Source of the DNA: Amphiscolops sp. MND2022 | Lineage: Eukaryota | Length of the DNA stretch: 64,000 nt | Reading direction: 5' to 3' | NCBI GenBank assembly: GCA_964187785.1 | Contig: OZ076409.1 | Location: 71,736,001 to 71,800,000 of the forward strand | Part shown: positions 1 through 64,000 of the stretch, piece after piece | Position numbering within the stretch: position 1 is the stretch's first letter | Layout of the letters: each line of letters opens with the position of its first letter | Made by a program: the position numbers and the translations under genes | Notes under the pieces: model-generated | Told to the model about the DNA's origin: nothing | Seen by the model: only the letters and a program-made list of their open reading frames with translations | Database searches by the model: none

Positions 1-109
1 CGCACCCAATATGATCGAAAATGCTATTCACAATGGTGACATGTGCTCTTTCAACGATCCTGGCTGGACAAGGTTTGCATATTTTTCAAGTACCTGTCAG
101 CTGAATCTT

Positions 110-157
110 GTGATAGCCTTTTAAGTTGGCCTTGTGTCAACTTGGGAAGGCTATCAC
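110..157 (+). other. Subterminal hairpin alpha (representative; present in every A, C and E unit with a 3' end in the window)
   Basis: GTGATAGCCTT-TT-AAGTTGGC-CTTGT-GTCAACTT-GGG-AAGGCTATCAC is an imperfect inverted repeat. Confidence 0.9.
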
Positions 158-483
158 ATCAAACAACCATCAACAAAAATAATTTTTGTTTATTGGATAT
201 TACAGTTGATACCTTATTTCGTGATTCTATACTACCGTTAGTATATTCCATGAGGTCACCTTACGATTGCATTCAGACTTTGATGAAAACCTATGAACTC
301 AAAGTCACATTTATATATTTTTTGCCCAAAAAAATCATCAAAAACATCTAATATATATAAAATTGAGTCTTTAACTTTTTTACGTTTCAAGTTTCTGCCG
401 TTATTAAGCCAATCAACTTCCTACAGCCACGCTCTCTGTCATACTGTACAACGCCACATAGTGTTGCGACGTGCACGGTCTGT

Positions 484-503
484 GGGCATGCCGAGGCATG
501 CCC
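484..503. promoter_or_regulatory. 20-bp palindrome GGGCATGCCGAGGCATGCCC, p53-family response-element-like (representative of 26 copies)
   Basis: Two adjacent decamers matching RRRCWWGYYY at 9/10 and 10/10, with no spacer. Function untested. Confidence 0.5.
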
Positions 504-525
504 TTCGACGACGTATGCCGAATAC

Positions 526-555
526 CGCGGGCCTACGCCCGCGCTCCCCGGCTAG
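526..555 (+). terminator. Helitron-like 3' terminal hairpin plus CTAG (representative; a putative transposition or replication end signal, not a transcription terminator)
   Basis: CGCGGGC-CTAC-GCCCGCG, then 8 nt, then CTAG. Confidence 0.55.
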
Positions 556-2539
556 GTGGGCGGGGGTAATTCCCCAACAAAAATTACGGCCGGCGGGTTG
601 GGTCCTGCCGGACGTCAAATAGCAAAGAATATCTAGTAGGAAACGGCGACACAGAATCGCGATTTTTAAATCTAACCACAATTTTTTGGACTTGGAGTGC
701 ATGCGGCCCTGAAATGCTCATACGAATCGAAGTTCCTGCTGACGTTAAGCGATTGAAATAATATATAAAAAGTTATGGCCCATTTTCCACTCACATAGAA
801 GGGTAAAATGAGGAAATTTTTAACAAAGTCGCTGATAACTCAAAATGTGTTAATTTTTGGACATTGACTGTGAAACAAACTTGGAACCTTCATTTCGTGG
901 CTGTGACATTGCACTGAACAGAAAAGATGTAGAGTTTTTACATTTTTTGAAAATTCGACATTTTTGAAATTTTTTTCACTACTATCAGTACACCATATGT
1001 CAAAAACGCCTCAGAAAAAAATTTTTCTTTGCTTTAAATTGGAAACTTTGGTATCCATGGTTTCTGTCGGAACCTACTCGCAGCCAAACACCCAACAGTT
1101 TGCATCCAATGTGAAAATAAAAATTTTTTCTGGGTCATAAGCGTTTCACAAGGATTTCTCAACTTAGTATTAATTTACAAAATAGTCAATTTGAACACAA
1201 TATTTTCATCGAGGCTTGTCGGCTATAGCCCTAATGTTCTAGAACGGTCCCAATGGCAACGTAGGAACCATTTATAGTAATAGAAAGTTAAAAAAAATAT
1301 TTTCACCCGGTCTTCAGTCATTTTTCAGTCATTCGGAACTTAACTTAGAAAAATTTCGACCAAAATACCCATTTTTTGTCAGGTCGAAAAATCAAATTCA
1401 GATTTTTAAGCAAAATTATTAACTCTGACGTGACTCATGGGGCCCATGATACTCAAAACAACGATTGACACTGGTATCAATGGCTCCAATAACATATGAG
1501 TCGCGATCGGACGTTATTTTGAGCAATATGTCTCAATTGAGGTAAAGATCTCGCAAGCCAGCGATCACTGTCAAATGTGATTTCATCAAAATTTTACTCA
1601 TTTTTGTCAATCATTATGTGCACAGAATGCGTAGGGTGCGTTTCAGCACTATAATGAGGTTTTTGAATGCATCGAGTTGCTCAAGGGGTGGTATGAGACA
1701 TTTTTGTCCCATATACTACTGTATTTTCCAAAATTTTTAGCCCAATATCTGGAAATACAAACTTGACAAAACACTTTCAACTACTTTATTCAAAGGTTAC
1801 GATATAGATCAACACTGTGGTTGATCAGAAACTTTCATCTCTTTCGTTTTCCGAAATATTTTCCTTCGCATGTGTTATATTTGTATCAGAAAAAAAATCG
1901 AAACTGAAAAATACGCTATTTTGCTAAAATAGAATCGCAATGATTGTGCCTAAAAACTCTTTAAACACTTCTAACGCGACCTTACGCACCCAAAATGATC
2001 GAAAATGCTAATCACAATGGTGACATGTGCTCTTTCAACGATCCTGGCTGGACAAGGTTTGCATATTTTTCAAGTACTTGTCAGCTGAATCTTGTGATAG
2101 CCTTTTAAGTTGGCCTTGTGTCAACTTGGGAAGGCTATCACATCAAACAACCATCAACAAAAATAATTTTTGTTTATTGGATATTACAGTTGATACCTTA
2201 TTTCGTGATTCTATACTACCGTTAGTATATTCCATGAGGTCACCTTACGATTGCATTCAGACTTTGATGAAATCCTATGAACTCAAAGTCACATTTATAT
2301 ATTTTTTGCCCAAAAAAATCATCAAAAACATCTAAAAAATATAAAATAGAGTCTTTAACTTTTTTACGTTTCAAGTTTCTGCCGTTATTAAGCCAATCAA
2401 CTTCCTACAGCCACGCTCTCTGTCATAGTGTACAACGCCACATAGTGTTTCGACGTTCACGGTCTGTGGGCATGCCGAGGCATGCCCTTCGACGACGTAT
2501 GCCGAATACCGCGGGCCTACGCCCGCGCTCCCCGGCTAG
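556..2539 (+). repeat. Unit U1, family A (1984 bp; head H1, tail T1)
   Basis: Junction to junction; closely similar to U6. Confidence 0.95.
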
Positions 2540-4520
2540 GTGGGCGGGGGTAATTCCCCTTCAAAAAATTCGGCCGGCGGGTTGGGTCCTGCCGGACGTC
2601 AAATAGTGTGAAACATCCAGTAGGAAACGGCGACATTTATCAGCGATTTTAAAATTTAACCGTTAGAATTCGGACTTGGAGTGCATGCGGCCCCAAAATG
2701 CCCATACAAATGGAAGTTCCTGCTGACGTTAAGCGATAAAAACACTTTATAAAAAGTTATGGCCCATTTTACGTTCACTTAGAGAGGTAAAATGAGGAAA
2801 ATTTTAACAAAGTTGCTGATAACTCAAAATACATTAATTTTTGGACTTTGACTGTGAAACAAGCTTGGAACCTTCATTTCGTGGCTGTGGCATTGCACTG
2901 AACTCAAAAGATGTAAAGTTTTCACAATTTTGGAAAATTCGACATTTTTGAATTTTTTTCACTACTATCAGTACACTATATGTCAAAAACACCTCTGAAA
3001 AAATTTTTTGTTTGCTTAAATTTAGAAACCTCGGTATCCATGGTTTCTGTCGGAACCTACTCGCAGCCAAACACTCAACAGTTTGCATCCAATGTGAAAA
3101 TAAAATTTTTTTCGGGGTCATAAGCGTTTCACAAGGATTTCTCAACTTAGTATTAATTTACAAAATGGTCATTTTGAACACAATATTTTCATCGAGGCTT
3201 GTCGGCTATAGCCTTAATGTTCTAGAACGGTCCCACTGGCAACGTAGGAACCATTTATAGTAATAGAAAGTATTAAAAAATTTTTTCATCCGGTCTTCAG
3301 TCATTTTTCAGTCATTCGGAACTTAACTTAGAAAAATTTCGACCAAAATACCCATTTTTTGTCAGGTCGAAAATTCAAATTCAGATTTTTAAGCAAAATT
3401 ATTAACTCTGACGTAACCCATGGGGCCCATGATACTCAAAACAATGATTGACACTGGTATCAATGGCTCCAATAACATATGAGTCGCGATAAGACGTTAT
3501 TTTGAGCAATACGTCTCAATTGAGGTAAAGATCTCGCAAGCCAGCGATCACTGTGAAATGTGATTTCATCAAAAATTTACTCATTTTTGTCAATCACTAT
3601 GTGCACAGAATGCGTAGGGTGCGTTTCAGCACTATAATGAGGTATTTGAAAGCATCGAGTTGCTCAAGGGGTGGTATGAGACATTTTTGTCCCATATACT
3701 TCTGTATTTTCCAAAATTTTTAGCCCAATATCTGGAAATACAAACATGACAAATAACTTTCAACTACTTTATTCAAAGGTTACAATATAGATGAACACTG
3801 TGGTTGATCAGAAACTTTCATCTCTTTCGTTTTCCGAAATATTTCCCTTCGCATGTGTTACATTTGTAGCAGAAAAAAAATCGATACTGAAAAATACGCT
3901 ATTTTGCTAATATAGAATCGCAATGATTGTGCCTAAAAACTCTTTAAACACTTCTAGCGCGACCTTACGCACCCAAACTTATCGAAAATGCTATTCACAA
4001 TGGTGACATGTGCTCTTTCAACGATCCTGACTGAACAATTTTCGCAAATTATTCAAGTACCTGTTAACTGAATCTCGTGATAGCCTTTTAAGTTGGCCTT
4101 GTGTCAACTTGGGAAGGCTATCACATCAAAAAATTTCCAACAATAAAACTTTTTGTTTATTGGAAATGACAGTCGATATATAATTTCGTGATTCTATACT
4201 ACCGTTAGTACCTTCCATTAAGTCACGTGACGATTGCATTCAGTCTTTGATAAATACCTATGAACTCGAAGTCATATTTATAAATTTTTCGCTAAAAATA
4301 ATTATCAAAATTATCCAAATTATTTAAAATTGAGTCTTTATCGTTTTTGTTTTTCTTTTTCTACTGTTATTAGGCCCATCAACTTCCTACAGCCACGCTC
4401 TCTGTCATTAGTACAACGCCACATAGTGTTGCGACGTTCACAGTCTGTGGGCATGCCGAGGCATGCCCTTCGACGACGTATGCCGAATACCGCGGGCCTA
4501 CGCCCGCGCTCTCCGGCTAG
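2540..4520 (+). repeat. Unit U2, family A (1981 bp; head H2, tail T1)
   Basis: Junction to junction; closely similar to U5. Confidence 0.95.
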
Positions 4521-6719
4521 GTGGGCGGGGGTAATTCCCCAACAAAAAAATCGGCCGGCGGGTCGGGTCCTGCCGGCCGTCCAAAATCAAAATCCTCCTA
4601 GTAGAAAACGGCCGGTCAAACGAGCTATTTTTTTATTTAACCGTTAGAATTTGGGTTTAGATTGCATGCGGCCATGAAATGGCCATACGAATGGAAGTTC
4701 CTGCTGACGTTTTGCGATTGAAACACTTTATAAAAAGTTATGGCCAATTTGTCATTCACCTAGAAGGGCAAAATGAGGAAAATTTTAACAAAGTCACTGA
4801 TAACTCAAAATGTAATAATTTTTGGACTTTGACAGTGAAACAAGCTTGGAACTGTCATTTCGTGGCTGTGGCATTGCACTGAACACAAAAGATGTAAAGT
4901 TTTCACATTTTTTGAAAATTCGACATTTTTGAATTTTTTTTCACTACTATCAGTACACTATATGTCAAAAACGCCTCTGAAAAAAATTTTTATTTGCTTA
5001 AAATTAGAAACCTTGGTATCCATGGTTTCCGTCAGTACCTACTCGCTGCCAAACGCTCAACAGTTTGCATCCAATGTGAAAATATAATTTTTTTCGAGGT
5101 CATAGGTGTTTCACAAGGATTTCTCAACTTAGTATCTATTTACAAATTGGTCATTTTGAACACATTATTTTCATCGAAGCGTGTCAGATACCACCCTAAT
5201 GCTCACGAATGGGCCTACTGGCAACGTTGGAACCATTTTTAGTAATAGAAAGTATTAAAAAAATATTTTCACCCGGTCTTCAGTCATTTTTCAGACATTC
5301 GGTACTTAACTTAGAAAAATTTCGCATCAAAAACCCATATTTGGTAGGGTCGAAATTTGAAATTCAGTTTTTTATGCAAAATTATTAACTCTGACGTAAC
5401 CAGTGGAGCCCATGATACTCAAAAACACGATTGGGACTGGTAGCAGTGGCTCCAATAACATATGAGCCGCGATAAGACGTTATTCAGAGCAAACGCTCTA
5501 AATCGAAGTAAACATCTCTGAAGCCTGGGATCACAGTGAAATGTGATATCACCAAAAGTTTACTCTTTTTTGTCAATCACTATGTACACAGAGTGCGTAG
5601 GGTGAGTTTCAGGACTATAATGAGGTTTTTGAAGTAATCGCGCTGCTCAAGGGGTGGTATGAGACTATTTTTTCCCATATACTACTACATTTCCATAAAT
5701 TTGCAGTCCATTGTCTTGGAAAGATAACTTCACAAAAACAATTTTTCTACTCTATTCAGTTATTAGAATAAAGTTGAACACTGTGGGTGATCAGAAATGC
5801 TCAATTCTTTTGGTTTTTAAAAAAAATCCTTCGCATTCGTTACATTTGTGGAAGGAAGGTTATCAGTAGCTCCAAAAAAACGAAATTTAGCACGAACAGA
5901 CATGCAACGATGCAAAGCAAAAACGTTTTTACAACTTCCGACGTTATTATTTTACACAAGAAGTTCGAAAATATCATTCGCAATGCTGTCATTCGCTATA
6001 TATACGATCGCGGTCAATTTACAAACATTTAGATTTCATTGTTCTGCTTGAAAACCAATTTTTGTCAGGTCGAAATTTTAAATTTTGCCTGGGGAGCAAT
6101 ACCCTTCACGCTGAAGTAAACAGTGGGGCCCAAGTTACTCAAAAACAAGAAAGAGACTGCTACAATATGTCCTAATAACATATGGACCACGATAGTACGT
6201 TTTTCACACAAAAAACTCTCATCCGAAGTAAATATGTTGAAAGCTTTTAATCACCGTGAGAAGTGATTTCATCAAAAAATAACTCTTTTTTGTCAATCAC
6301 TATTTACACAGAATTTGTAAAGTTAGTTTGAGTCAAGAAATGAGGCTTTACCGTAATATGGGTTGCTCAAGGTGTTATATAAGACAAAAACTTCCTCTTT
6401 TCTACTAGCTTCTTCAAATATTTCAACCCTTTGTCACAATAAGTTAATATTCAAAATCTCTTTGAAATGTATCTTTATGTTGGGGTGAAGTCTAAGAACA
6501 ATAACTATGATCGAAGAATGCTAGTACTGGTGTTTGAACCATGTCCGGATGAACAAATCACAAAATCATCAAAAAATTGTTCCCTTTTTTGGTTATTTTG
6601 GCAGTACTAAAAATGTTAGCCGAGAAATAATTTTTTCGATGGCACCATTGGATTCCTCTCAAAAAGTTGGTTATATGACCTGTGTAATAACCCCGTATCT
6701 TTTCAATTTAAATATATTT

Positions 6720-8100
6720 AAAAAGCCAACTATTTTGACCAAAATCCTAAAAATCATACCATTTCCTAAAAATTTTCAAATGCACCCCATTTGACGTATA
6801 AGATAAGCACAGAAAACTATCATATACCGATCAACTCTACTCCTATTGTAGATTATTAGAATTTTGTTTAGAATGAATTTTGATGAATAATAAAAAAATT
6901 TTGAACCCTCCAAAAATGGGCCAAAATTACACGAAAAAATTGACCTTAAAATACCAAAATGTCAAAAAATCATCAAAACCCAGGCTTCTTGGGGTTCTAT
7001 CAACTCCGCGTGGTCCACAGAGTATGCTAAAACAGGTTTTACCCGTTTTTGAGCAATATGTGAAAAAGCCGACATTTTTGGGAAAGAAAAACATACCATT
7101 TCATGAAAAAATTCAAATGCACGTCATTTGCCGTATTAGAATAGCACAGAAAACTATCACATACCAATCAACTCTACTTTCTTTGCAGATGAACAGAATT
7201 TTGTTTAGAATAAATTTTACCGGATAATAAAAAAATTTGAATCCTTCAAAAATGGGCCAAAAATACACGAAAAAATGGACCTTAAAAATTTAAAATGTCA
7301 AAAAATCATCAAAACAACAGCTTCTTGGGGTTCTATCAACTCCACGAGGTCCACAGAGTATGCTAAAACAGGTTTTACCCGTTTTTGAGCAATATGTGAA
7401 AAAGCCGACATTTTTGGGAAAGAAAAACATACCATTTCCTAAAAAAATTCTAATGCACGCCATTTGCCGTATGAAAATAGCACAGAAAACTATCACATAC
7501 CAATCAACTCTACTTTCATTGCAGATGAACAGAATTTTGTTTAGAATAAACTTTACCGGATAATAAAAAAAATTGATTCCTTCTAATATGGGCCAAAATT
7601 ACACGAAAAAATGGACCTTAAAATTTTAAAATGTCAAAAAATCATCAAAACCACGGCTTCTTGGGGTTCTATCAACTCCACGTGGTCCACAGAGTATGCT
7701 TAACCCGGTTTTACCCATCTTTGAGCAAAATGTGAAAATACCGACATTTTTGGAAAAGAAAAACATGCCATTTTCTAATAAATTTCAAATGCACGCCATT
7801 TGCTGTATGAGAATAACACAGAAAGCTGTCACATACCGATCAACTCTACTTCCATTGTAGATTATCAGAAGTTTGTTTAGAATAAATTTTGAAGGATAAT
7901 AAAAAAATTTGAATCCATCAAAAATGGGCCAAAATTACACGAAAAAATTGACCTTAAAATATCAAAATGTCAAAAAATCATCAAAACCACAATTTCTTGG
8001 CGTTCTATCAACTCCATATGATACCAAACCAGGTACTGCCAATCGTTTGAGTTATAATAAAAAAACGTCTTTTTTGGCAAGAATTCCATACCATAAATAA
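6720..8100 (+). repeat. Internal 336-bp tandem repeat (about 4 copies) of family B
   Basis: TGGGCCAAAA at 6917, 7253, 7589 and 7925 (period 336). Boundaries are approximate. Confidence 0.9.
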
Positions 8101-8305
8101 TAATCATGTTCCATATAAGAAGCGAATCATTTCAGATATATACCCTGTTCATTTTTTTAATATTACCGATTATTAATTTAATAGATGTTTTGAATGTGAG
8201 CTTCCTAAAAGGTTCAGGTGTGATGATACGTAAATAGAACCTTAGTTTCATCGAAATCTCAATTGAATATGTCCAATCTTAACCATCAGATAACAAGAAA
8301 CACTT

Positions 8306-8348
8306 AAGTACATTCCATCTCCCCATCGGGGGAGATGAGAATGTACTT
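8306..8348 (+). other. Subterminal hairpin beta (representative; present in every B and D unit)
   Basis: AAGTACATTC-CATCTCCCC-ATCG-GGGGAGATG-A-GAATGTACTT is an inverted repeat with one bulged A. Confidence 0.9.
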
Positions 8349-9280
8349 TCGAGAAGCCAAATACGTCCAACATTCAAACTTTTGTAACTTTGTATGTAAC
8401 TCCTGAAACGAAGAAGGAATAAAATTGTTTCTGGTACATACATGAGTCTTTACTTCAGCTTCTATTTCTGCTGAACAAAACCATTCGACTCTTTTGCCGG
8501 AGTTAAGATCGATTGTATTACCCAGTGAACAAAGGCATGACTGAAAACGTTTACTACTTTGTTCATAATTTTCTGGCCTTCCGAAATGATGAAACGTCCA
8601 CATAACTAAGATAGCAAGTGAATGACTGCGAAATGCACCTTATTAGATGAGGTAAATAACGTGTAAAACTCTCCTTTATCCTAACATGAGGTTGAGTAAT
8701 GATCATTTGAGAATAGTTTGATATGTGAATACAATAGTATAAAACAAGTACATTTTATATGAATAACGCCGTGGAAAGCGTTCAGAAAGGACAGTAGGCT
8801 TGTTTGGAACATGTATGTGTGGTGTCCCTTGGTGGCGTTCGCTTAGTGTATATGTCGAGGGGTATTCGAGTTGTTATGATAGAATTTACACACAAGTCTT
8901 TTGTTTTTTGGTTTTTTTAAAATGTCGTTAAGTACCTGCATTCTATCCCCTTCTCAGAGATGACGTGAAGTTACGTTTGCTAAATAAATGTCATCGAAAG
9001 ATCACACTCCCGACGAAATTAACTATCTTAACACGTGTTTAGAATTTTAAATAAACAACCGTATAAGATTTTTATATTTCATTGAGTTTGATGAGGTCTT
9101 TTGTTCTTCTCACTACTATTTCAACCAATACACATATCCGTTACCATATCACATGTCTCCATTAGTACAACGCCACATAGCGTTCCGACGCCCACAGTCT
9201 GTGGGCATGCCGAGGCATGCCCTTCGACGACGTATGGCAAATGGAGCCATGCCCGCCGTCTTTACGGCGGTAGCGGCTAG

Positions 9281-11272
9281 GTGGGCGGGGGTAATTCCCC
9301 AACAAAAAAATCGGCCGGCGGGTCGGGTCCTGCCGGCCGTCCAAAATCAAAATCCTCCTAGTAGAAAACGGCCGGTCAAACGAGCTATTTTTTTATTTAA
9401 CCGTTAGAATTTGGGTTTAGATTGCATGCGGCCATGAAATGGCCATACGAATGGAAGTTCCTGCTGACGTTTTGCGATTGAAACACTTTATAAAAAGTTA
9501 TGGCCCATTTTTCACTCATCGAGAAGGGTAAAATGAGGAAATTTTTAACAAAGTTGCTGATAATTCAAAATACAATAATTTTTGGACTTTGACTAAGAAA
9601 CAAGCTCGGAACAGTCATTTCGTGGCTGTGGCATTGCACTGAACACAAAAGATGCAAAGTTTTTATATTTTTTGAAAATTCGACATTTTTGAAATTTTTT
9701 TCACTACTATCAGTACCCCATATGTCAAAAACACCTCAGAAAAAAATTTTTATTTGCTTTAAATTGGAAACCTTGGTATCCATGGTTTCTGTTGGAACCT
9801 ACTCGCAGCCAAACACCCAACAGTTTGCATCCAATGTGAAATAAAAAATTTTTTCGAGGTCATAAGCGTTTCACAAGGTTTTCATGATTTAGTATTAAAT
9901 TACAAAGTGGTCATTTTAAACATAAAATTTTGGTCCAGGCATGTCGGATATAGTCTGAATGCTCACGAACGGTCCTACTGGCAACGTAGGAACCATTTAT
10001 AGTAATAAAAAGTATTAAAAAATTTTTTTCACCCGGTCTTCAGTCATTTTTCAGACATTCGGAACTTAACTTAGAAAATTTTCGAACCAAATACCCATTT
10101 TTTGTCAGGTCGAAAATTGAAATTCAGCTATTAAAGCAAAATTTTTTACTCTGACGTAACCAGTGGGGTCCATGATACTCAAAAATACGATTGGGACTGG
10201 TACCAATGGCTCCTATATCATATGAGCCGCGATAAGACGTTATTTTGAGCAATACGTCTCAATTGAGGTAAACATCTCGCAAGCCTGGGATCACAGTGAA
10301 ATGTAATTTCATCAAAAAATTACTCATTTTCGTCAATCACTATGTGCATAGAGTGGGTAGGGTGAGTTCCAACACTATAATGAGGTTTTTGAAGGCATCG
10401 GGTTGCTCAAGGGGTGGTATGAGTCATTACTTTCCTATATACAACTGTATTTTCAAAAACTTTTAGCCCATTATCTGGAAAAACTAACTTGACAAAATAC
10501 TTTCAATTACTTTATTCAAAGGTTACAATATAGATGAACCCTGTGGTTGATCAGAAACTTTCATCTCTTTCGTTTTCCGAAATAACTCCTTTCAAATGTG
10601 TTACATTTGTAGCAGGAAAAAAAACTGAAACTAAAAAATACGCTATTTTGCTGAGATAGAATCGCAATGGTTGCGCCTAAAATCTCTTTAAATACTTCTA
10701 ACGCGACCTTACGGACCCAAAATGATTAAAAATGCCATTCACAAGGCTGACATGTGCTCTTTCTACGATCCTGGCTGGACAAGTTTTGCATTTTTTTCAA
10801 GTACCTGTTAACTGAACATTGTGATAGCCTTTCAAGTTGGCCTTGTGTCAACTTGGGAAGGCTGTCACATCAAAAAACTGTCAACAAAAATACCATTTGT
10901 TTATAAGATATTGCTGTCGATGCTTCACTTCGTGATTCGATCATGTCGTGAGTTCCTTCCATCAGGTCAGCTAACATTTGGATTCAGTGTTTGATAAGAA
11001 CCTATGATTTTCATGACAATTTTTGTTTTTTTTTTTGCAAACAAAAAGTACGAATAAATGATATAAAACATATTTGTAACCTTTAGGAAGTTTAACTTTA
11101 CCTTTATTTACCGTTACCATCACCACCCACCCCCTACGATCTCGCAGTGTCCTCATTACAACGCCACATAGTGTAGCGACGCCCACAGTCTGTGGGCATG
11201 CCGAGGCATGCCCTTCGACGACGTATGGCAAATATAGCGTTAGCCCGCGGTCACTACCGCGGTAGCAGCTAG
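9281..11272 (+). repeat. Unit U4, family A (1992 bp; head H3, tail T3 CCGCGGT-CACT-ACCGCGG)
   Basis: Junction to junction; body similar to U14. Confidence 0.95.
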
Positions 11273-51457: not shown

Positions 51458-53449
51458 GTGGGCGGTAGGTTTCCCGTAGTCAAAAAAAAATTGCAGGCCG
51501 GGGTAGGGGCCCTGGCCGAGGCAAAATACCATAGAAAAGGTACCAAATTATGTGAGTTTAGAAAATTGAGCCATACAAATTCTCTGAAAATTGCTGTGTG
51601 TACCCTATCGCCCAATCTAAGAACTTTTTCCTGCTGACGTTTTGCTCTCCAAATGTTACTAATATGACTTTTTGAAAAATTTATCTCTGGTTTTTCATCA
51701 AAAATAGTGATTTTGGCAATTTTTGTGAAATATCTCTGATTGCATTAATTTTTGGACGTTGACTGTGAAACAAGGTCGGAACCATCATTTCGTGACCATG
51801 GCAATGCACTAAACACAAAAGATGTAGAGTTTTTAAATTTTTTGAAAATTTGACATTTTTAAATTTTTTTCACTACTATCAGTACCATATATGTCAAAAT
51901 AACCTCAGAAATTTTTTTTATTTTATTTAATTTAGAATCCTTGCTATCCATGGTTTCTGTTAGTATCTACTCGCTGCCAGAGACTCAACAGTTAGCATCG
52001 AATCTGAAATTAAAAATTTTTTCGAGGTCATAGGTGTTTCACAAGGATTTCACAACATAGTCTTGTTTTACAAATAGGTCATTTACAACATCATATTTTC
52101 ATCGAGGCATGTCGGATATAGTCTTATTGCTCACGAACGGTCCTACTGGCAACGTAATAACCATTTATAGAAATATAAAGTTTTAAAAAAATCTTTTCAC
52201 CCGTTCTTCAGACATTTTTCAGACATTCGGAACTTAACTTAGAAAAATTTCGTCTCAAAAACCCATTTTTCGTCAGGTCGAAAATTGAAATTCAGCTTTT
52301 GAAGCACAAATATGCACTCTGACGTAACCAGTAGGGCCAATGATACTCAACAACACCATTGAGACTGGTATCAGTCGCTCCAAAAACATATGAGCCGTGA
52401 TAAGACGTTTTTTCAACAATACTGTTCAATTGATGTAAACATCGCGGAAGCCTTGGATTACAGTGAAAGTTGATTTGAACAAAAATTTACTCTTTTTTGT
52501 CAATCAATATGTAGACAGAATGCGTAGGGTAAGTTTCAGCACTAATATGAAGATTTTGAAGGAATCGGGTTGCTCAAGGCGTGGTATGAGACACTTTTTT
52601 CTCATATACTAGTGTTTTTCAAAACCTTTTCGTTAAATATCTCGAAAAGCAAACATTAAAAAATACTTTCTGATATATAATTTAATTCCTAGAATATAAA
52701 TGAATCATGTGGTTGATCAGAAACTCTCTACTTTAATGTTTCAAGAAAAAAATCCCTTCCCATGTTTTATATCTGTAGCAGTAAAAAAAGTAGACGCTAA
52801 AAAATACGCAATTTTGCTAAGATTGAATTGCAATTGTTTAGCTTTAAAACTCTTTTAATACTTCTAACGCCACCTTAAGGACTCAAGATGATTGAAAATG
52901 TCAATCACAATGCTGACATGTAGTCTTTCTACGATCCTGGTTGGACAGATTTTGATTATTTTTCAAGTACCTGTTAACTGAATCTCGTGATAGCCTTCTA
53001 AGTTGACCTTCTGCGTCAACTTGAGAAGGCTATCACTAAAATAAACTAAATTCTGATTTGTTTGTTTGTTCCTAACGTCTTTTGGTACGATCGTCTTACG
53101 GTTAGTTGGTTAAACCAGGTCGCTTATACTTCCACAATTTTCGACCACCGTCCGTGTATTTGGTTCACACGACTTTACATTTTCAGTCGTTTGTTTTCGA
53201 TAACTATCACAATGTACTGCCATTAGCGCAAAATTCATACTAGTACTTGGTTGGTTGAAATACTTAAACAACTGTTTCCATAGTTATTCGCGGTGATGGT
53301 ACAATCCGCGCGCCTACATACCTACGGCGTCTTGTCACTACAACGCCACATAGGGAAACAACGCCCATAGTCCGTAGGCATGCCGAGGCATGCCTTTCGA
53401 CGACGCGCGCCAAATCTATGCGCGCCCGCACTTGTGCGGTAGCTGCTAG
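51458..53449 (+). repeat. Unit U21, divergent family A'' (1992 bp; unique head, unique 3' segment, D-like tail)
   Basis: Diverged A body. Hairpin alpha variant at 52987-53036. Tail CGCGCGCCAAA...GCGCGCCCGCACTT is as in family D. Confidence 0.92.
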
Positions 53450-56400
53450 GTGGGCGGGGGTAATTCCCCAACTAAAAAATCGGCCGGCGGGTAGGGTCCT
53501 GCCGGCCGTCCAAAATCAAAAATATACTAGTAGAAAACGGCCGGTCAAACGAGCTATTTTTTTATTTAACCGTTAGAATTTGGGTTTAGATTGCATGCGG
53601 CCATGAAATGGCCATACGAATCGAAGTTCCTGCTGACGTTTTGCGATTGAAACACTTTATAAAAAGTTATGGCCAATTTGTCAGTCACCTAGAAGGGCAA
53701 AATGAGGAAAATTTTAACAAAGTCGCTAATAACTCAAAATGTGTTATTTTTTGGACTTTGACTGTGAAACAAGCTTGGAACCTTCATTTCGTGGCTGTGG
53801 CATTGCACTGAACCCAAAAGATGTAAAGTTTTTACATTTTTTGAAAATTTGACATTTTTGAAATTTTTTTCACTACTATCAGTACCATATATGTCAAAAA
53901 CACCTCAGAAAAAAAATTTTATTTGCTTTAACTTGGAAACCTTGGTATCCATGGTTTCTGTCGGAACCTACTCGCAACCAAACAACCAACAGTTTGCATC
54001 CAATGTGAAAATAAAAAATTTTTCTGGGTCATAAGCGTTTCACAAGGATTTCTCAACTTAGTATTAATTTACAAAATGGTCATTTTGAACACAATATTTT
54101 CATCGAGGCTTGTCGGCTATAGCCTTAATGTTCTAGAACGGTCCCACTGGCAACGTAGGAACCATTTATAGTAATAGAAAGTTTAAAAAAAATATTTTCA
54201 CCCTGTCTTCAGTCATTTTTCAGTCATTCGGAACTTAACTTAGAAAAATTTCGACCAAAATACCCATTTTTTGACAGATCGAAAATTCAAATTCAACTTT
54301 TTAAGCAAAATTAGTAACTCTGACGTAACCAGTGGGGCTCATGATACTCAAAAACACGATTGGGACTGGTACCAATGGCTCCAATATCATATGAGCCGCG
54401 ATAAGACGTTATTTTGAGCAATACGTCTCAATTGAGGGAAACATCTCGCAAGCCTGGGTTCACAGTTAAAAGTGATTTCGTCAAAAATTTACTCTTTTTC
54501 GTCAATCACTATGTACACAGAGTGCGTAGGGTGAGTTTCAGCACTATAATGCGGTTTTTGAAGGAATCGGTCTGCTCAAGGGGTGGTATGAGACATTTTT
54601 TTTGCATGTAGTACTATATTTCTCAAAACTTTTAGCCCAATATCTCGAAAAGCTCACTTCGCAAATTACTTTCAGTTACTCTATTCGAAGCTTAGAATTT
54701 ATATGAACACTGTGGTTGATCAGAAACTCTTGACTATTTTGTTTTTGGAAAAAAACTGCCTTGCATGTGTTACATTAGTGGCAGGAAAAATACCAGTAGC
54801 TCCAAAAATCACAATTTTGGACGGACAGACCTGCAATGATGCAAAGCAAAAACGTTTCAACAACTTCTGGCGCCACTTTTTTTACCCAAGAGGTTCGAAA
54901 TTACTATTAACAATGCTGACATTCGCTATAAATAAGATCGAGGTCAATTTACTAACACTTAGGTTATACATTTATATCTGAGAAACCATTCTTTGTCAGG
55001 TCGCAATTTTAAATTTAGTTTGGGAAGCAATACTTTTCACTCTGAAGCAAACCGTTGGGCCCAAATTACTCAAAAACTACAAAAAGACTGTCACCATATG
55101 CCCTAATAGCATATGAGATTCGACCGTATGTTTTTAACACAAAAACTCTCATCCGAAGTAAACATGTTGAAAGCCTTGAATCACCGTGAGAAATGATTTC
55201 ATCAAAAAATATTCCTTTTTCGTCAATCTTTATCTACACAGAACACGTTGTGTCATTTTCAGCCGTGAAATGAGCTTCTACCGTAATATGGGTTGCTCAA
55301 GGTGTTGTATAAGACAAAAACTTCCTCTTTTCTACTATCTTCTTCAAATATTTCAACCCTTTGTCACAAGAAGTTAATATTCAAAATCTCTTTGAAATGT
55401 TTCTTTAGGTTGGGGTGAAGTGTTAGAACAATAATTATGATCGAAGAATGATAGTATTGGTGTTTGGACCATGTCCGGATGAACAAATTGCAAAATCATG
55501 AAAAATTTCTTACCATTTTTGGTCATTTTGTCAGTACTAAAAATGTTAGCTGAAAAAGAATTTTTTGATGGCACCATTGGATTCCTCTCAAAAAGTTAGC
55601 TATATGAACTGTGTAATAACCCCGTATCTTTTCAATTTAAATAATTTTAAAAAGCAAACTTTTTTGACTAAAATCCTAAAAATCATACCATTTCCTAAAA
55701 AATTTCAAATGCCCCCCATTTGACGTATAAGAATAGCACAGAAAACTATCACATACCGATCGACTCTACTTCCATTGTAGATTACCAGAATTTTGTTTAG
55801 AACAATTTTTGACGGATGCAAAAAAAATTTAAACCCTCCAAAAAAGGGCCAAAATTACACGAAAAAATTGACCTTAAAATTTTAAAATGTCGAAAAATCA
55901 TCAAAACCACAGCTTCTTGGGGTTCTATCAACTACACGTGGTCCACAGAGTATGTTAAAACAAGTTTTACCCGTATTTGAGCAATATGTGAAAAAGCCGA
56001 CTTTTTTGGGAATGAAAAACATACCATTTCCTAAAAAATTTCAAACGCACCCCATTTGACGTATAAGAATAGCACAGAAAACTATCACATACCGATCGAC
56101 TCTACTTCCATTGTAGGTTACCAGAATCTTGTTTAGAACAATTGTTGACGGATGCAAAAAAAAATTAAACCCTCCAAAAATGGGCCAAAATTACACGAAA
56201 AAATTGACCTTAAAATTTTAAAATGTCAAAAAATCATCAAAACCACAGCTTCTTGGGGTTCTATCAACTCCACGTGGTCCACAGAGTATGCTAAAACAGG
56301 TTTTACATGTTTCTGAGCTATATGTGAAAAAACCGACATTTTGGGGAAGAAAAACATACCATTTCTTAAAAAATTTCAAATGCACGCCATTTGCCGTATG

Positions 56401-58211
56401 AGAATAGCACAGAAAACTATCACATACCGATCAACTCTACTTCTATTGTAGATTATCAGATTTTTGTTTAGAACAAATTTTTATGGATATAAAAAATTTT
56501 TAAACCCTCCAAAAATGAGCCAAAATAACACGAAAAAATGGACCCTAAATTTTTAAAATGTCAAAAAATTATCCAAACCACAGCTTCTTGGGGTTCTATC
56601 AGCTCCACGTGGTCCACAGAGTATGCTAAAACAGGTTTTGCCCGTTTTTGAGCAGTATATGAAAAAGCCGACATTTTTGGGGAAGAAAAACATACCATTT
56701 CCTAAATAATTTCAAATGCAGGCAATTTGCCATATGAGAGTAGCACAGAAAACTATCACACACCGATCAACTCTACTTCTTTTGTAGATTATCAGAATTA
56801 TGTTTAGAGTAAAGTTTTATGGATATGAAAAATTTTTATACCCTCCAAAAATGGGCCAAAATGACACGAAAAAATTGACCTCAAATTTTTAAAATGTCAA
56901 AAAATTATCCAAACCACAGCGTCTTGGCGTTCTATCAACTCCAAATGACCTTCAGAGTATACCAAACCAGGTATTGCCAATCTTTTGAGCAATATTTAAA
57001 AACACCGACTATTTGGCAAGAACACCATAATATGTTCCATATAAGAAGTGAATCATTCCACATATATACCCGGTCTAATATTTCCAAATTAGCGATAACA
57101 TTTATACATGATGGTTTTTGAAAGTGAGCTTCATAAGAGGTTGAGATGTAATAATACGTAAATGGACCCTAAGTTTCATTGAAATCTCAATGGAATACGT
57201 CCAATCAACTTCAATCCTAACTATTATATAACAAAAAACACTTGAGTACATTCCATCTCCCCATCGGGGGAGATGAGAATGTACTTTTCAAAAGCCAAAA
57301 ACTTCGAATTTTAAATCTTTTGTAACATTGTATGTAACTGTTGAAACGATGAACGAATGAAAATGCTTCTAGTACCTTCATCAATTTTTGCTTCAGCTCC
57401 TATTTCTGCAGAACAAAACCAAAAGACACACTTACAGCAGTTAAGTTCGATTGTATAACTCAGTGAGTAAAGGTATGACTGAGGAAGTTCACAAGTTGTT
57501 TCAAAAGTTTCCGGCCTTCCAAAATCATGAAACGTCCACACAACCAAGATAGCAAGTGAAAGAATGCTGAATGCACCTTATTAGATGAGATAAATAATGT
57601 GTGGAACTTGCCATTATCTCAAGATGACGTTGATTTATGATCTTTTAAGGATAGTTCGATATGTGACCACAATAGTGGAAAACTTATTACTATTTGAAGA
57701 ACACCGTGGAAAGCGTTCAGAAAGGACAGTATATTTGTTTCGAGCATGCATGCGTGTGTTCCTTTGGTGACGTTAGCTTAGTGTACATGACGGAGGTATT
57801 CGAGAGATTATGATAGAGTTTACTCACAAGTCTTTGTTTTTTTAAACTTTCTATGCCGTTGAGTACATTCGTAAGGTACATCCATCCCCTTCTCTGGGAA
57901 TGTACGTTTGCCAAATGACTGTCATCCAAAATTCGTAATCCGGACGAGTTTAACTACATAAACATGTGATGAGCGTTTTCAATTCACAACCGAATAACAT
58001 TTTTTTTCTCGAAAATGATGATGGTTTTGATTTTGATGTCTTCTACTTTTATCATCATGCAAACGACCTTACCATGTCTCTCTTCTGTCGTCATTTGTAC
58101 AACGCCACATAGCGTTCCGACGCCCACCGTCTGTGGGCATGCCGAGGCATGCCCTTCGACGACGTATGCCAAATGAGCCATACCCGCACTCTGGAGTGCG
58201 GTAGCGGCTAG
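53450..58211 (+). repeat. Unit U22, family B (4762 bp; tail T4)
   Basis: Nearly identical to U18. 336-bp array at about 55650-57030; hairpin beta at 57246-57284. Confidence 0.95.
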
Positions 58212-60197
58212 GTGGGCGGGGGTAATTCCCCAACAAAAATTACGGCCGGCGGGTTGGGTCCTGCCGGACGTTCAAATAGCGCGAAGCATCTAGTAGAAAA
58301 CAAGGAGTCCTGAAACAGCGATTTTAAAATTGAACCGTTAGAATTTGGTTTTAGATTGCATGCGGCCCTAAAATCCCCATACGAATGGAAGTTCCTGCTG
58401 GCGTTAAGCGATTGAAATAATATATAAAAAGTTATGGCCCATTTTTGGGTCACCGAGAAGGTCAAAATGAAGAAAATTTTAACTAAGTTGCTGATAACTC
58501 AAAATGTGTTAATTTTTGGACTTTGACTGTGAAACAAGCTTGGAACCTTCATTTCGTGGCTGTGGCATTGCACTGAACACAAAAGATGTAAAGTTTTCAC
58601 ATTTTTTGAAAATTCGACATTTTTGAATTTTTTTTCACTACTATCAGTACACTATATGTCAAAAACACCTCTGAAAAATTTTTTATTTGCTTAAATTTAG
58701 AAACCTCGGTATCCATGGTTTCCGTCAGTACCTACTCGCTGCCAAACACTCAACAGTTTGCATCCAATGTGAAAATAAATTTTTTTTCGAGGTCTTAGGT
58801 GTTTCACAAGGATTTCTCAACTTAGAATCAATTTACAAATTGGTCATTTTGAACACATTATTTTCATCGAAGCGTGTCATATACCGCCCTAATGCTCACG
58901 AACGGGCCTACTGGCAACGTTGGAACCATTTATAGTAATAAAAAGTTTTAAAAAAATTTTTCACCCCGTCTTCAGTCATTTTACACACTTTCGGAACTTA
59001 ACTTAGAAAAATTTCAACCAAAAACCCATTTTTTGTCAAGTCGAAAATTCAAATACAGCTTTTTAAGCAAAATAAATAAATCTGACATAACCAGTGGGGC
59101 CCATGAAACTCAAAACCACGATTGAGACTGGTATCAATGGCTCCAATAACATATGAGTCGCGATAAGACGCTATTTTGAGCAAAACATCTCAATTGAGGT
59201 AAAGATCTCGCAAGCCAGCGATCACTGTGAAATGTGATTTCATCAAAAATTTACTCTTTTTTGTCAATCACTATGTGCACAGAATGCGTAGGGTGCGTTT
59301 CAGCACTATAATGAGGTTTTTGAAGGCATCGAGTTGCTCAAGGGGTGGTATGAGACATTTTTGTCGCATATACTACTGTATTTTCCAAAAATTTTAGATC
59401 AATATCTGGAAATACAAACTTGACAAAATACTTTCAACTACTTTATTCAAAGGTTACAATATAGATGAACACTGTGGTTGATCAGAAACTTTCATCTCTT
59501 TCGTTTTCCGAAATATTTTCCTTCGCATATGTTACATTCGTAGCAGAAAAAAAAATCGAAACTGAAAAATACGCTATTTTGCTAATATAGAATCGCAATG
59601 ATTGTACCTAAAAACTCTTTAAACACTTCTAACGCAACCTTACGCACCCAAAATGATCAAAAATGCTATTCAAAATGGTGACATGTGCTCTTTCTACGAT
59701 CCTGGCTGGACAAGGTTTGCATATTTTTCAAGTACCTGTCAGCTAAATCTTGTGATAGCCTTTTCAGTTGGCCTTGTGTCAACTTGGGAAGGCTATCACA
59801 TCAAAAAACCATCAACAAAAATAATTTTTGTTTATTGGATCTTACAGTCGATACTTTGTTTCGTGATTCTATACTACCGTTAGTATATTTCATCAGGTCA
59901 CCTTACGATTGCATTCAGTCTTTGATAAAAACCTATGAACTCAAAGTCACATTTATTTATTTTTTGCCAGAAAATAACATCAAAAATATCTAAAATATAT
60001 AAAATAGAGTCTTTAACATTTTTACGTTTCAAGTTTTTGCCGTTATTAGGCCAATCAACGTCCTAGAGCCACATCCTGCCACATACTGTACAACGCCACA
60101 TAGTGTTGCGACGTGCACAGTCTGTGGGCATGCCGAGGCCTGCCCTTCGACGACGTATGCCGAATACCGCGGGCCTACGCCCGCGCTCCCCGGCTAG
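58212..60197 (+). repeat. Unit U23, family A (1986 bp; H4, T1)
   Basis: Closely similar to U10. Confidence 0.95.
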
Positions 60198-62183
60198 GTG
60201 GGCGGGGGTAATTCCCCTTCAAAAAATTCGGCCGGCGGGTTGGGTCCTGCCGGACGTCAAATAGTGTGAAACATCCAGTAGGAAACGGCGACATAAATCA
60301 GCGATTTTAAAATTTAACCGTTAGAATTCAGACTTGGAGTGCATGCGGCCCCAAAATGCCCATACGAATCGAAGTTCCTGCTGACGTTAAGCGATAAAAA
60401 CATTTTATAAAAAGTTATGGCCCATTTTACGTTCACCTATAAGGGTAAAATGAGGAAAATTTTTACAAAGTCGCTGATAACTCAAAATACATTAATTTTT
60501 GGACTTTGACTGTGAAACAAGCTTAGAACCTTCATTTCGTGGCTGTAGCATTGCAGTGAACACAAAAGATGTAAAGTTTTTACATTTTTTGAAAATTCGA
60601 CATTTTTGATTTTTTTTTCACTACTATCAGTACACTATATGTCAAAAACACCTCTGAAAAAAAATATTATTTGCTTAAAATTGGAAACCTTGGTATCCAT
60701 GGTTTCTGTCGGAACCTACTCGCTGCCAAACACCCAACAGTTTGCATCCAATGTGAAATTAAAATTTTTTTTGAGGTCTTAGGTGTTTCACAAGGATTTC
60801 TCAACTTAGTTTCAATTTACAAATTGGTCATATTGAACACAATATTTTCATCGAAGCTTGTCAGATACCGCCCTAATGCTCACTAATGGGCCTACTCGCA
60901 ACGTTGGAACCGTTTATAGTAATAGAAAGATTAAAAAAATATTTTCACCCGGTCTTCAGTCATTTTTCAGTCATTCGGAACTTAACTTAGAAAAATTTCG
61001 ACCAAAATACCCATTTTTTGTCAGGTCGAAAAATCAAATTCAGATTTTTAAGCAAAATTATTTACTCTGACGTAACTAGTGGGCCCCATGATACTCAAAA
61101 ACACGATTGGGACCGGTACCAATGGCTCCAATTTCATATGAGCCGCGATAAGACGTTATTTTGAGCAACACGTCTCAATAGAGGTAAACTTCTCGCAAGC
61201 CTGGGGTCACAGTGAAAAGTAATTTCATCAAGAATTTACTCATTTTTGTCAATCACTATGTGCACAGAGTGCGTAGGGTGCGTTTCAGCACTTTAATGAG
61301 GTTTTTGAAGGCATCGGTCTGCTCAAGGGGTGGTATGAGACATTTTTTTCCTGTATACTACTGTATTTTCCAAAACTTTTAGCCAATTATCTGGAAAAAC
61401 TAACTTGACAAAATACTTTCAATTACTTTATTCAAAGGTTACAATATAGATGAACCCTGTGGTTGATCAGAAATTCTCAACTACTTTGTTTTCCGGAAAA
61501 AATCACTTCGCATCTGTTACATTTGTAGCATGAAAAAAAGCAGAATCTAAAAAATACGCAATTTTGTTAAGATAGAATCGCGTTGATTGTGCCTAAAAAG
61601 TTAATAAACACGTCTTACGCCACCATACAGACCCAAAATGATTGAACATGTCAATCAGAATGCTGACATGTTTTCTATCTACGATCAAGGTTGGACAATT
61701 TTTGCATTATTTTCAAGTACCTGTTAACTGAATCTTGTGATAGCCTTTTAAGTTGGCCTTGTGTCAACTTTGGAAGGCTATCACATCAAAAAATTATCAA
61801 CAAAAATGCTTTTTGTTTATACAATGTTGTTTTCGATAAACATTTTTGCGATTCTAAGCTACCGTTAGTACCTTCCATGAGGTCAGCTAACGATAGCATG
61901 CAGTCTCTGATAAAAAATTATGAACTCAATTACATTTTTCTAAAATTTTTCTCAGAGAAAAGTACAAATAAATAAAAACAATATAAAATTCTAATCTCAA
62001 ACAACTATAAATTGTTTGTTTTTCACCGTAATTAGTTTACGACCCATCACCCTATGTCACGGCACCGTCATTAGTACAACGCCACATAGTGTTGCGACGT
62101 GCACAGTCTGTGGGCATGCCGAGGCATGCCCTTCGACGACGTATGCCGAATACCGCGGGCCTACGCCCGCGCTCCCCGGCTAG
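60198..62183 (+). repeat. Unit U24, family A (1986 bp; H2, T1)
   Basis: Closely similar to U12. Confidence 0.95.
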
Positions 62184-63459
62184 GTGGTCGTTAGCATGGG
62201 ATTTTCTTTATGAGCGTAGTCCACTTTTTTTAGGCCGGGGTAGGGTCCCGGGCCGTTACCAATTTCTTACGGAGGAAAAATGTGAAAATCTGCGAGTTTA
62301 AAAAATTGGCCCGTACGATTTGGCTGAAAATTGGCATACAGCATCGTCTTGGGAAACAAATGACTTTGTCCTAGTGTCATTTTGCCCAGAAAATTCAAAA
62401 AGTTGGTCAAATTGAAAATTTTTTGACCGTCTAAGGCAAAAATTTGACATTTTCGCTTTTTTTGGCCAATTTTCTCAGAATTGGTTGATTTTAGTGCAGT
62501 GAGTCATAAGAGGTTACAAGGTCTGCAAGTAGCCATCAATCGGCTTGCATAATCAGATTTTGTCAAAAGTGTTTAGTTTTTTCAAAAATTCACACTTTTT
62601 TTTATTTCAGTGTTTTTTGATACTTTTTATTGAATTTTTTCTAAGTTTCACTAAATTTTTTAAAAATGTTTTAAAACACTTTTTTGCACGTTTTTGATGT
62701 TTTTCGCTCTCCCATATAGGTTTTCGCATACGGGGAAACTGAATCTGGCAACTAAATAACTTTATTCTGCAGTTCAACTTTCGCCATTTTTAATTGTTGA
62801 AAAATCACTCATTTTCAACCTAACGAGTGAAAATATCAGAATTTAAAAACATAAAGTTGAGTTTAAGGAGACTTACAGGTGGAAACAAATGCTCAGAAAC
62901 AAATAGATTTCTTGTATTAGCCAAAGAAAGCCTTTAAAATTCTTTTTACTTTCTTTAAATCAAATTTCAACTATTTTTAAGAAATTTGGCAGTGAAAAAA
63001 TTTATAATTTTTAAATTAAAAAAAACTTGCTTTGTTGGTCATTTCCGTTTGTCATTATTAGCTGTGCAATTCACCAACACGTTTCAAGTTATTTTGACCC
63101 AATTTGAAAATTTTTAATACTGCATAATCTATCCGAGAGAACGAAACAGTTGTGTACATTCCATCTCCCTCCTGGGGGAGATGAGAATGTACTTGCCAAA
63201 GTCCAGGTACTACAGACCATATTTGTTTTTATGCGACACCGTCTATACTAATGCACATGAATACAAATTGTTTGTCTAAATTTTACTTCTGACTTGCCGT
63301 ATGCTGTACGTTTGGTACTGACAATACCCATCATATACATAACAAGCGTCAACGCCACATACCCTTACCAACGCCCATAGTCCGTAGGCATGCCGAGGCA
63401 TGCCTTTCGACGACGCGCGCCAAACACAAGCGCGCCCGCACTTTTGCGGTAGCAGCTAG
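62184..63459 (+). repeat. Unit U25, family D (1276 bp)
   Basis: Homologous to U9; hairpin beta at 63154-63192. Confidence 0.93.
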
Positions 63460-64000
63460 GTGGGCGGGGGTAATTCCCCAACAAAAATTACGGCCGGCGG
63501 GTTGGGTCCTGCCGGACGTCAAATAGCAAAGAATATCTAGTAGGAAACGGCGACACAGAATCGCGATTTTTAAATCTAACCACAATTTTTTGGACTTGGA
63601 GTGCATGCGGCCCTGAAATGCCCATACGAATCGAAGTTCCTGCTGACGTTAAGCGATTGAAATAATATATAAAAAGTTATGGCCCATTTTTCACTCACAA
63701 AGAAGGGTAAAATGAGGAAATTTTTAACAAAGTCGCTGATAACTCAAAATGTGTTAATTTTTGGACTTTGACTGTGAAACAAGCTCGGAACCTTCATTTC
63801 GTGGCTGTGGCATTGCACTGAACACAAAAGATGTAAAGTTTTTACATTTTTTGAAAATTCGAAATTTTTGAAATTTTTTTCACTACTATCAGGACCCCAT
63901 ATGTCAAAAACGCCTCAGAAAAAATTTTTTATTTGCTTTAAATTGGAAACCTTGGTATCCATGGTTTCTGTCGGATCCTACTCGCAGTCAAACACCCAAC
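63460..64000 (+). repeat. Unit U26, family A (partial, 5' part; head H1)
   Basis: Matches 556 to about 1096. Confidence 0.95.

Follow-up and report, generated by a model that had tools for sequence, protein, structure and literature searches.

Integron arrays consist of mobile units that lie in one orientation and in shuffled order at a conserved site, probably assembled by way of single-stranded circles. The stretch described here, positions 71,736,001-71,800,000 of C1 (OZ076409.1) in the 1.07-Gb assembly of Amphiscolops sp. MND2022 (GCA_964187785.1), was analyzed over its whole 64 kb (hereafter, the window) and resembles such an array in outline; however, its units are related non-autonomous Helitron-like transposons, not the unrelated cassettes described in a first-pass annotation of the same DNA. 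We read the window, with a probability of roughly 0.8, as part of an array that combines several families of Helitron-like transposons from a third lineage, single units being copied by rolling circle into existing junctions. The array departs from integrons in its candidate enzyme, an HUH transposase instead of a tyrosine recombinase, and in its units, which are copied, are non-coding, and can enter any junction instead of a single attI.

Among eukaryotic transposons, HLE1 Helitrons such as Helraiser share with the array elements a Rep-helicase protein (RepHel) combining an HUH-Y2 Rep with a Pif1 helicase, a 3′ hairpin followed by CTRR, insertion without target duplication, and a downstream RPA-like gene (PMC11417382, PMC5876387). 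HLE1 elements also form circles whose ends meet precisely, in a joint cleaved by the enzyme (PMC11417382, PMC5876387). The array elements differ in beginning with GTG and a hairpin where HLE1 begins with TC, in inserting at CTNG|DT (the preceding base being G in 15 of 17 flanks) where HLE1 inserts at A|T, and in having a Rep that falls outside the HLE1 clade and an SLX1-like GIY-YIG domain at the C-terminus of the protein. Array size differs as well: ∼95% of 3′ ends here adjoin a further copy, and the mixed arrays run to thousands, as against two to seven copies in Helitron-derived tandems of Xenopus (PMC12001565). HLE2 elements (Helentron, Helitron2, and proto-Helentron) are alike in having a RepHel, in the internal tandem repeats of their non-autonomous copies, and in the OTU domain that some array relatives carry; proto-Helentron also ends in CTAG, and one moss HLE2 family has a GIY-YIG domain (PMC11417382). 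In contrast to HLE2, the array elements have neither DUF6570 nor an AP endonuclease, their target is not T|T, and their Rep lies outside the HLE2 clade. No inverted repeat between the two unit ends was seen by eye in heads and tails, for which no dedicated search was made.

IS91 shares with the array elements an HUH-Y2 transposase, has a circular intermediate, and inserts in a fixed orientation at a tetranucleotide without duplication (PMC13181058); its targets CTTG, GTTC, and CTCG, in which the second-place T is fixed, resemble its terminator cut site CTCG (PMC13181058), and T is likewise fixed in second place in the 5′ flanks of the array elements. However, IS91 is prokaryotic and small and has no fused helicase, whereas the array protein is ∼2,400 amino acids (aa) long and Helitron-like, and junction-targeted mixed arrays are not described in the accessible parts of PMC13181058. 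Replitrons are eukaryotic HUH transposons that also insert in one orientation 3′ of a short target (PMC10288648), but they have a Y1 Rep, no helicase, and short direct terminal repeats, where the array elements have Y2 and Pif1. By the features tested, the array elements are Helitron-like by enzyme, IS91-like by target, and neither HLE1 nor HLE2. Plain Helitron tandems are already known; junction-targeted mixed arrays are apparently new, and the full-text literature searched (Repbase and subscription journals lying outside the search) held no description of them or of a GTG...CTRG Helitron group with GIY-YIG.

Junctions and Unit Ends

The octamer GCTAGGTG occurs 26 times in the window, always on the + strand and never on the − strand, against a chance expectation of 0.39. 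Cutting GCTAG|GTG between G and GTG yields 25 full units (numbered U1 to U25, between the partial U0 and U26) of 1,276-4,762 bp, which abut without spacer and all have head and tail intact, so that the 26 one-orientation, spacer-free, untruncated junctions of the first-pass annotation are borne out. Its neighbor examples for the five families, A to E, are also all correct: D follows C at 20016 and A at 62183, E follows two tail types at 30029 and 35979, U12 and U24 are followed by E and D, and U10 and U23 are preceded by D and B. Two of its statements do not stand. The families are not unrelated, since A and B have their first 1.33 kb in common at 84% identity, and C and E are 78-83% identical across ∼60% of their length. 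Neither is the octamer the only constant, since a 29-nt palindromic motif lies in 26 of 26 tails and a hairpin with a conserved loop in 26 of 26 heads, whereas junctions elsewhere in the genome read CTRG|GTG and need not have the octamer's initial G.

At the 5′ end, all 26 window units and 14 of 15 solo heads begin with GTG. The head hairpin lies ∼40-60 bases in, with a loop of the GG[KAGGGN]CC type and arms that vary by family (in U1, 586-614, + strand). The arms pair despite these family differences, with 7.9 paired bases over 20 head types compared with 6.5 ± 0.24 for swapped arms (maximum 7.3 in 2,000 swaps); this effect is modest, and the heads were chosen by the loop motif. We propose that the hairpin is the origin bound by RepHel. 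At the 3′ end of U1, a subterminal palindrome within the 29-nt tail motif (2468-2487, +) is followed by a terminal hairpin and the CTAG end (2510-2539, +), a terminator of the Helitron type.

Genome-wide, the strict tail motif occurs 2,935 times (control 0), both clustered, on a megabase scale, and solo, and the same junction rule holds in arrays on five contigs inspected, of which those of eight units are already mixed in family, with clean flanks at the target. There are 4,708 tails followed by CTRG-GTG (control 0), 112 followed by CTAG-H (control 53; 23 of 30 inspected were genuine), and 54 followed by CTAG-GTH (control 4). By estimate, ∼95% of tails thus abut GTG, in a count that leaves out CTAG-GV ends and CTGG ends without GTG, and in the stretches inspected the GTG was nearly always a head, with one exception, a solo flank. 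Further unit families (∼1.07, 1.28, and 4.7 kb) with other tails use the CTRG|GTG joint and the head hairpin (L016 391-3600; L024; L032; L067; L074); the 4,708 joints are therefore a lower bound.

Target Site

The 5′ flanks of fifteen solo heads and two array edges (n = 17) read CTTG in five cases, CTGG and CTAG in three each, CTCG in two, and TTGG, CTTA, TTTA, and ATAG in one each; by position, these are C in 14, T in 17, any base, and G in 15. On the 3′ side stands G, A, or T, followed by T in 19 of 23 ends not selected for T (three of them inside arrays). Flanks that are unlike the element ends set the cut between the target halves CTNG and DT. Two insertions interrupt other repeats, and the paralogous empty sites (7 of 7 and 4 of 4) equal the two flanks joined, with nothing added or lost; the target is thus CTNG|DT, without target-site duplication. 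From these solo flanks and empty sites the cut was placed in the window junctions, for example between 2539 and 2540 in the GCTAG/GTG at 2535-2542 (+).

The target agrees with the elements' own joint, CTRG|GT, which forms between two copies or in a circle, the circle joint and the array joint being identical in sequence. About 5.9 million CTNG|DT sites are expected in the genome; therefore, the motif alone cannot account for nearly all tails abutting heads, and an extra cue is needed, which we infer to be the head hairpin of the resident copy.

Autonomous Partners

A genome search with PF14214 returned, among 150 of 152 matches listed, 25 partial matches in open reading frames (ORFs) of at least 2,200 aa, many of them near tail clusters. 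All eight of the listed 25 that were inspected begin at a junction behind another unit's tail, and all seven with an end in view terminate at a junction, with lengths of 12-17 kb; long, ORF-bearing units with the same ends, for which the first-pass annotation had proposed a search, thus exist in the form of RepHel elements. The nearest (C1:71,601,601-71,615,683) lies 120 kb before the window and directly precedes B and A units 96.5-99.4% identical to those of the window; a 99.6%-alike copy of this 14-kb element lies on C4 among different neighbors. The array RepHel proteins form four lineages, with 33-35% identity to the first in the Rep region. Non-autonomous and autonomous copies share their ends: the head hairpin is common to all four lineages and the tail motif of the window to three, whereas the remaining lineage, which is the most frequent, has another tail that also ends in CTAG.

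The array proteins contain a weak Helitron_like_N match and a PIF1 domain by Pfam scan, and both histidines of the HUH motif and two tyrosines are conserved in ≥90% of the 66 sequences aligned. The Rep profile had no match among PDB sequences; a fold search with the Rep model (pLDDT 84.6) gave Helraiser (7LCC; E 1.6e-7, TM 0.37) as its sole match at E ≤ 0.001. The first-pass annotation had named either an HUH Rep/helicase or a tyrosine recombinase as the driver; the enzyme found is Helitron-like, and no tyrosine recombinase occurs among the scanned ORFs of the elements, the genome not having been searched for one. A C-terminal GIY-YIG domain was present in 12 of 12 homologues scanned (11 above the Pfam cut-off) and in 54 of 63 long homologues by a profile seeded partly from those homologues; among solved structures, SLX1 is the nearest to it (E 1.9e-5 with a homologue and 0.027 with the array protein), and one might speculate that it cuts branched intermediates. 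Additionally, autonomous elements of three lineages carry an ORF of 320-390 aa downstream, which had no convincing Pfam match and in one lineage is divided between two frames. Its model (pLDDT 79) has fold matches to RPA and to other single-strand binders of the OB-fold type (best E 2e-6; TM low, ∼0.2), and an RPA-like OB-fold ORF also lies beside distant metagenome relatives.

Short ORFs within autonomous elements (L016 4908-5411, in the 14-kb C1 element, and similar frames of 217-222 aa in L021 and L033) we take, by eye and from a motif that was not scanned for, to resemble SGNH/GDSL hydrolases. Some members have an OTU-like N-terminal or a Ulp1 protease C-terminal domain (L039 887-1500, the N-terminus of a 2,589-aa RepHel; P0017, P0018, P0020, P0115).

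Lineage Placement

The Rep profile recovered 389 clusters at E ≤ 1e-30 among 1.84 billion protein representatives. In an unrooted Rep tree (56 rows, 239 columns, four fragments dropped), the branch separating the array proteins from HLE1 plus HLE2 had support of 100/100, the HLE1 clade 100/100, and the HLE2 clade 96.9/100; the references in this tree were the Helitrons of this genome (HLE1 being strong PF14214 matches) and metagenome sequences, labeled by Pfam and not taken from Repbase entries. A helicase tree, built without HLE1 rows, agrees on a placement outside the HLE2 clade. None of four array proteins and none of 12 homologues scanned has the HLE2 marker DUF6570, which is present at 5 of 6 HLE2 loci of the same genome. 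Judged by sequence, the Rep represents a lineage apart from HLE1 and HLE2, a third Helitron branch that is seemingly undescribed. Unclassified Helitron-like clusters are reported from 19 genomes in PMC11417382, with no description in the parts of that paper available to us, and the protein clade may already have been glimpsed among them. Intact ordinary HLE1 and HLE2 elements occur in the same genome and served as controls.

Metagenome contigs with relatives 24-27% identical (L144, L149, L161, L166, and others) carry several accessory ORFs, including the OB-fold gene. Two marine relatives, 26% identical, start with the same hairpin loop (2 in 38 loci, 0.28 expected), both at contig starts; this is suggestive only. 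Among the metagenome contigs, 0 of 26 had an end overlap and none showed an element end.

Unit Order and Alternative Explanations

Order statistics were computed over the window and the next 200 kb (264 kb), comprising 95 units from 96 common-tail junctions, with five junction-like sites left uncut. None of the 95 units is in reverse orientation. The 31 unit pairs at least 99% alike share an upstream neighbor in 2 cases and a downstream neighbor in 1 (0.86 and 0.84 in shuffles), and none of the 94 adjacent pairs is at least 97% alike (2.7 in shuffles). There is no periodicity up to lag 30, and a higher-order repeat was thus rejected. The aperiodic order described in the first-pass annotation therefore holds both in the window and across the 264 kb, the long-period repeat that would have spoken against it is absent to lag 30, and the neighbor-pair tabulation that it proposed gives an order equal to the shuffle. 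Its view that tails and heads combine freely is right for the two sides of a junction, where adjusted mutual information is 0.065 (shuffle p 0.04), and wrong for the two ends of one unit, where it is 0.49.

Several observations weigh against single-unit insertion as the whole explanation. Family pairs fit the shuffle except for C-D, seen twice (p 0.007, uncorrected), and other-other, seen four times (p 0.014), in 36 pairs tested, and one two-unit block recurs at 95%, so some multi-unit copying may occur. Under a copying model, 35 of 48 A units are internally mosaic, with 108 donor switches along the unit length and 13 units without any; there is also one B-A chimera, and one B unit is 670 bp longer within its 336-bp repeat. 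Homologous exchange is therefore active and may have helped the arrays to grow. Breakpoints are not confined to the octamer, and the scattered breakpoints that the first-pass annotation had named as speaking against its reading are thus seen in part. The most frequent RepHel lineage (∼2,375 aa) has a tail unlike that of the window units. The GIY-YIG domain is recognizable in two of this genome's four lineages and degenerate in the other two, which argues that the SLX1-like domain is dispensable in some cases. The order statistics themselves rest on one 264-kb stretch, as assembled. Interiors recombine, yet neighbors change faster: whole-unit near-identical pairs almost always have new neighbors on both sides. 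Several mosaic breakpoints recur in different A units, which suggests that recombinant copies were themselves copied.

The alternative that survives best, although it is improbable, is that a few tandem insertions arose by chance and that unequal crossover and gene conversion then enlarged and shuffled them like a satellite, with no junction targeting. Widespread internal mosaicism, the chimeric and repeat-expanded units, and the megabase clusters of tail motifs would all fit such a history; however, block duplication should preserve neighbors, and these are shared in only 2 and 1 of 31 pairs, as in shuffled arrays. There are also no runs of a single subtype (0/94) and no period, eight-unit arrays are already mixed and have clean target flanks, and the 14-kb autonomous copies, 99.6% alike on two contigs, have different neighbors. 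This explanation is largely refuted here.

Less probable again is that unit circles enter through homologous recombination of the host, either within the 90-bp tail that units share or within related interiors, instead of by Rep strand transfer. The subterminal motif present in all tails and the mosaic A units would fit this, but the expected swap of the last 35-45 bases was seen in 0 of 12 cases: all 12 C, D, and E units retain their own terminal bases, none having passed to the preceding unit. Crossover within the tail that all units share is thereby excluded, and the alternative raised in the first-pass annotation, crossover in the GC-rich junction, is contradicted by the same 12 units. Same-family neighbors would also be predicted, whereas C-C, D-D, and E-E are all 0 (few being expected) and A-A is at chance, and solo copies lie precisely at CTNG|DT without homology.

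Rolling-circle over-replication or terminator bypass, in which multi-unit pieces are copied and inserted together as in ordinary Helitron tandems, seems slightly more doubtful still. Head-to-tail Helitron tandems are known (PMC5876387, PMC5148889), and the possible C-D block and the one recurring two-unit block would fit it; however, concatemers repeat one unit many times over, whereas none of the 94 adjacent pairs is of one subtype, bypass copies keep their neighbors and the near-identical copies here do not, and the initial meeting of different families would be left unexplained. An artefact of repeat-rich assembly is the least probable source of the order, because neighbors less than 97% alike are separable by long reads, the same rule holds on five contigs, and solos have clean empty sites, even though the one public run found holds 13% of the words as short contigs uninformative on order, with no RNA holder.

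Proposed Mechanism and Significance

The steps that follow are modeled on Helitron (Helraiser) and IS91 biochemistry; in Helraiser the end joints are precise and are cleaved on the plus strand (PMC5876387). For single-unit copying into junctions, RepHel would bind the head hairpin and nick the + strand at CTRG|GTG, the helicase would peel the unit off up to the next CTRG terminator, and the unit ends would be joined into a circle, which would then be inserted by strand transfer at a CTNG|DT site. The joint of a resident copy, being a CTNG|DT site with a Rep-binding head beside it, would be strongly preferred, so that arrays would grow by one unit per insertion, in one orientation and in random order; homologous exchange among related units would later scramble their interiors. 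The first-pass proposal that whole units are copied and inserted site-specifically at junctions by an HUH Rep/helicase acting in trans is supported by the RepHel elements in the same arrays, by solo targets that match the joint, and by the random single-unit order.

On a broader proposal our confidence is evenly divided: a third-lineage RepHel with an SLX1-like nuclease and an RPA-like helper might act as a site-specific single-strand cassette integrase that reads the head hairpin and CTRG|GTG, such that many families and at least four deeply diverged transposases share a self-made safe harbor and build shuffled megabase arrays. If so, the signal, and perhaps the habit with it, would be ancient, given the head hairpin of the distant marine relatives.

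The elements constitute a separate Helitron-like lineage with an IS91-like target that apparently aims at its own joints. If this is true, transposition alone can build satellite-sized, heterochromatin-like blocks, the ∼4,700 joints corresponding by estimate to roughly 10 Mb at 2 kb per unit, and a copy-in transposon would have a new way of sparing its host. Because autonomous copies are intact and both the ends and the target are defined, the way in which Helitron integration chooses its target can be tested directly. An integrator of this kind, which would place multi-kilobase DNA in one orientation without a scar and restore the landing site each time, could serve gene stacking. Search tools based on TC...CTRR or on inverted repeats would miss these elements.

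Units of the Window and Regional Variation

The 26 octamers, all on the + strand, start at 551, 2535, 4516, 9276, 11268, 13251, 15236, 17219, 20012, 21290, 23279, 28039, 30025, 31997, 33983, 35975, 37947, 39955, 44717, 46704, 51453, 53445, 58207, 60193, 62179, and 63455, and the units are likewise all on the + strand. Family A, non-autonomous and ∼1.98 kb long, comprises the 3′ part of U0 (1-555), U1 (556-2539), U2 (2540-4520), the four units U4-U7 of differing subtypes (9281-17223), U10 (21295-23283), U12 (28044-30029), U14 and U15 (32002-35979), U19 (44722-46708), U23 and U24 (58212-62183), and the 5′ part of U26 (63460-64000), beyond which the array continues for at least 200 kb past the window. 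The family B units, of which U3 measures 4.76 kb and is A-like over its first 1.33 kb, each contain a 336-bp tandem repeat: U3 (4521-9280; repeat 6750-8016), U11 (23284-28043; 25512-26846), U18 (39960-44721; 42189-43539), U20 (46709-51457; 48938-50196), and U22 (53450-58211; 55679-57029), the last being 99.9% identical to U18 with different neighbors.

The single family C unit, U8 (17224-20016; 2.79 kb), is homologous to the family E units U13 (30030-32001; 1.97 kb) and U16 (35980-37951). Family D consists of U9 (20017-21294; 1.28 kb), which has an identical copy 183 kb downstream among different neighbors, and U25 (62184-63459). Two divergent, A-related units complete the series: U17 (37952-39959), with a head of its own, and U21 (51458-53449), with a D-like tail. 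A 48-bp internal palindrome (2094-2141, +) is common to A, C, and E units and is not in B; it is kept in all three although C and E otherwise share only their ends with A. The window's 19 ORFs of at least 100 aa are at most 212 aa long, and the one of 171 aa that was tested had no Pfam match, so the units were rejected as coding genes; a small-RNA gene array was rejected as well, with no Rfam family at gathering score and no tRNA in the window.

Content varies between array regions: A and B units are abundant in the window, whereas other array stretches (C1:73.4-76.5 Mb and C1:38.16 Mb) are rich in 1.27-kb families and contain most of the long RepHel ORFs. These regional differences may record waves of activity. 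Array orientation flips inside a unit or head, not at a junction, at C1:23,977,000-23,979,000 and at C1:72,444,500; thus, ordinary rearrangement also acts on the arrays. At C1:71,888,299-71,888,390, the final 32 bases of a tail from another family stand between an A tail and the head that comes next; this may be an off-target insertion that was copied afterwards with bypass of the terminator.

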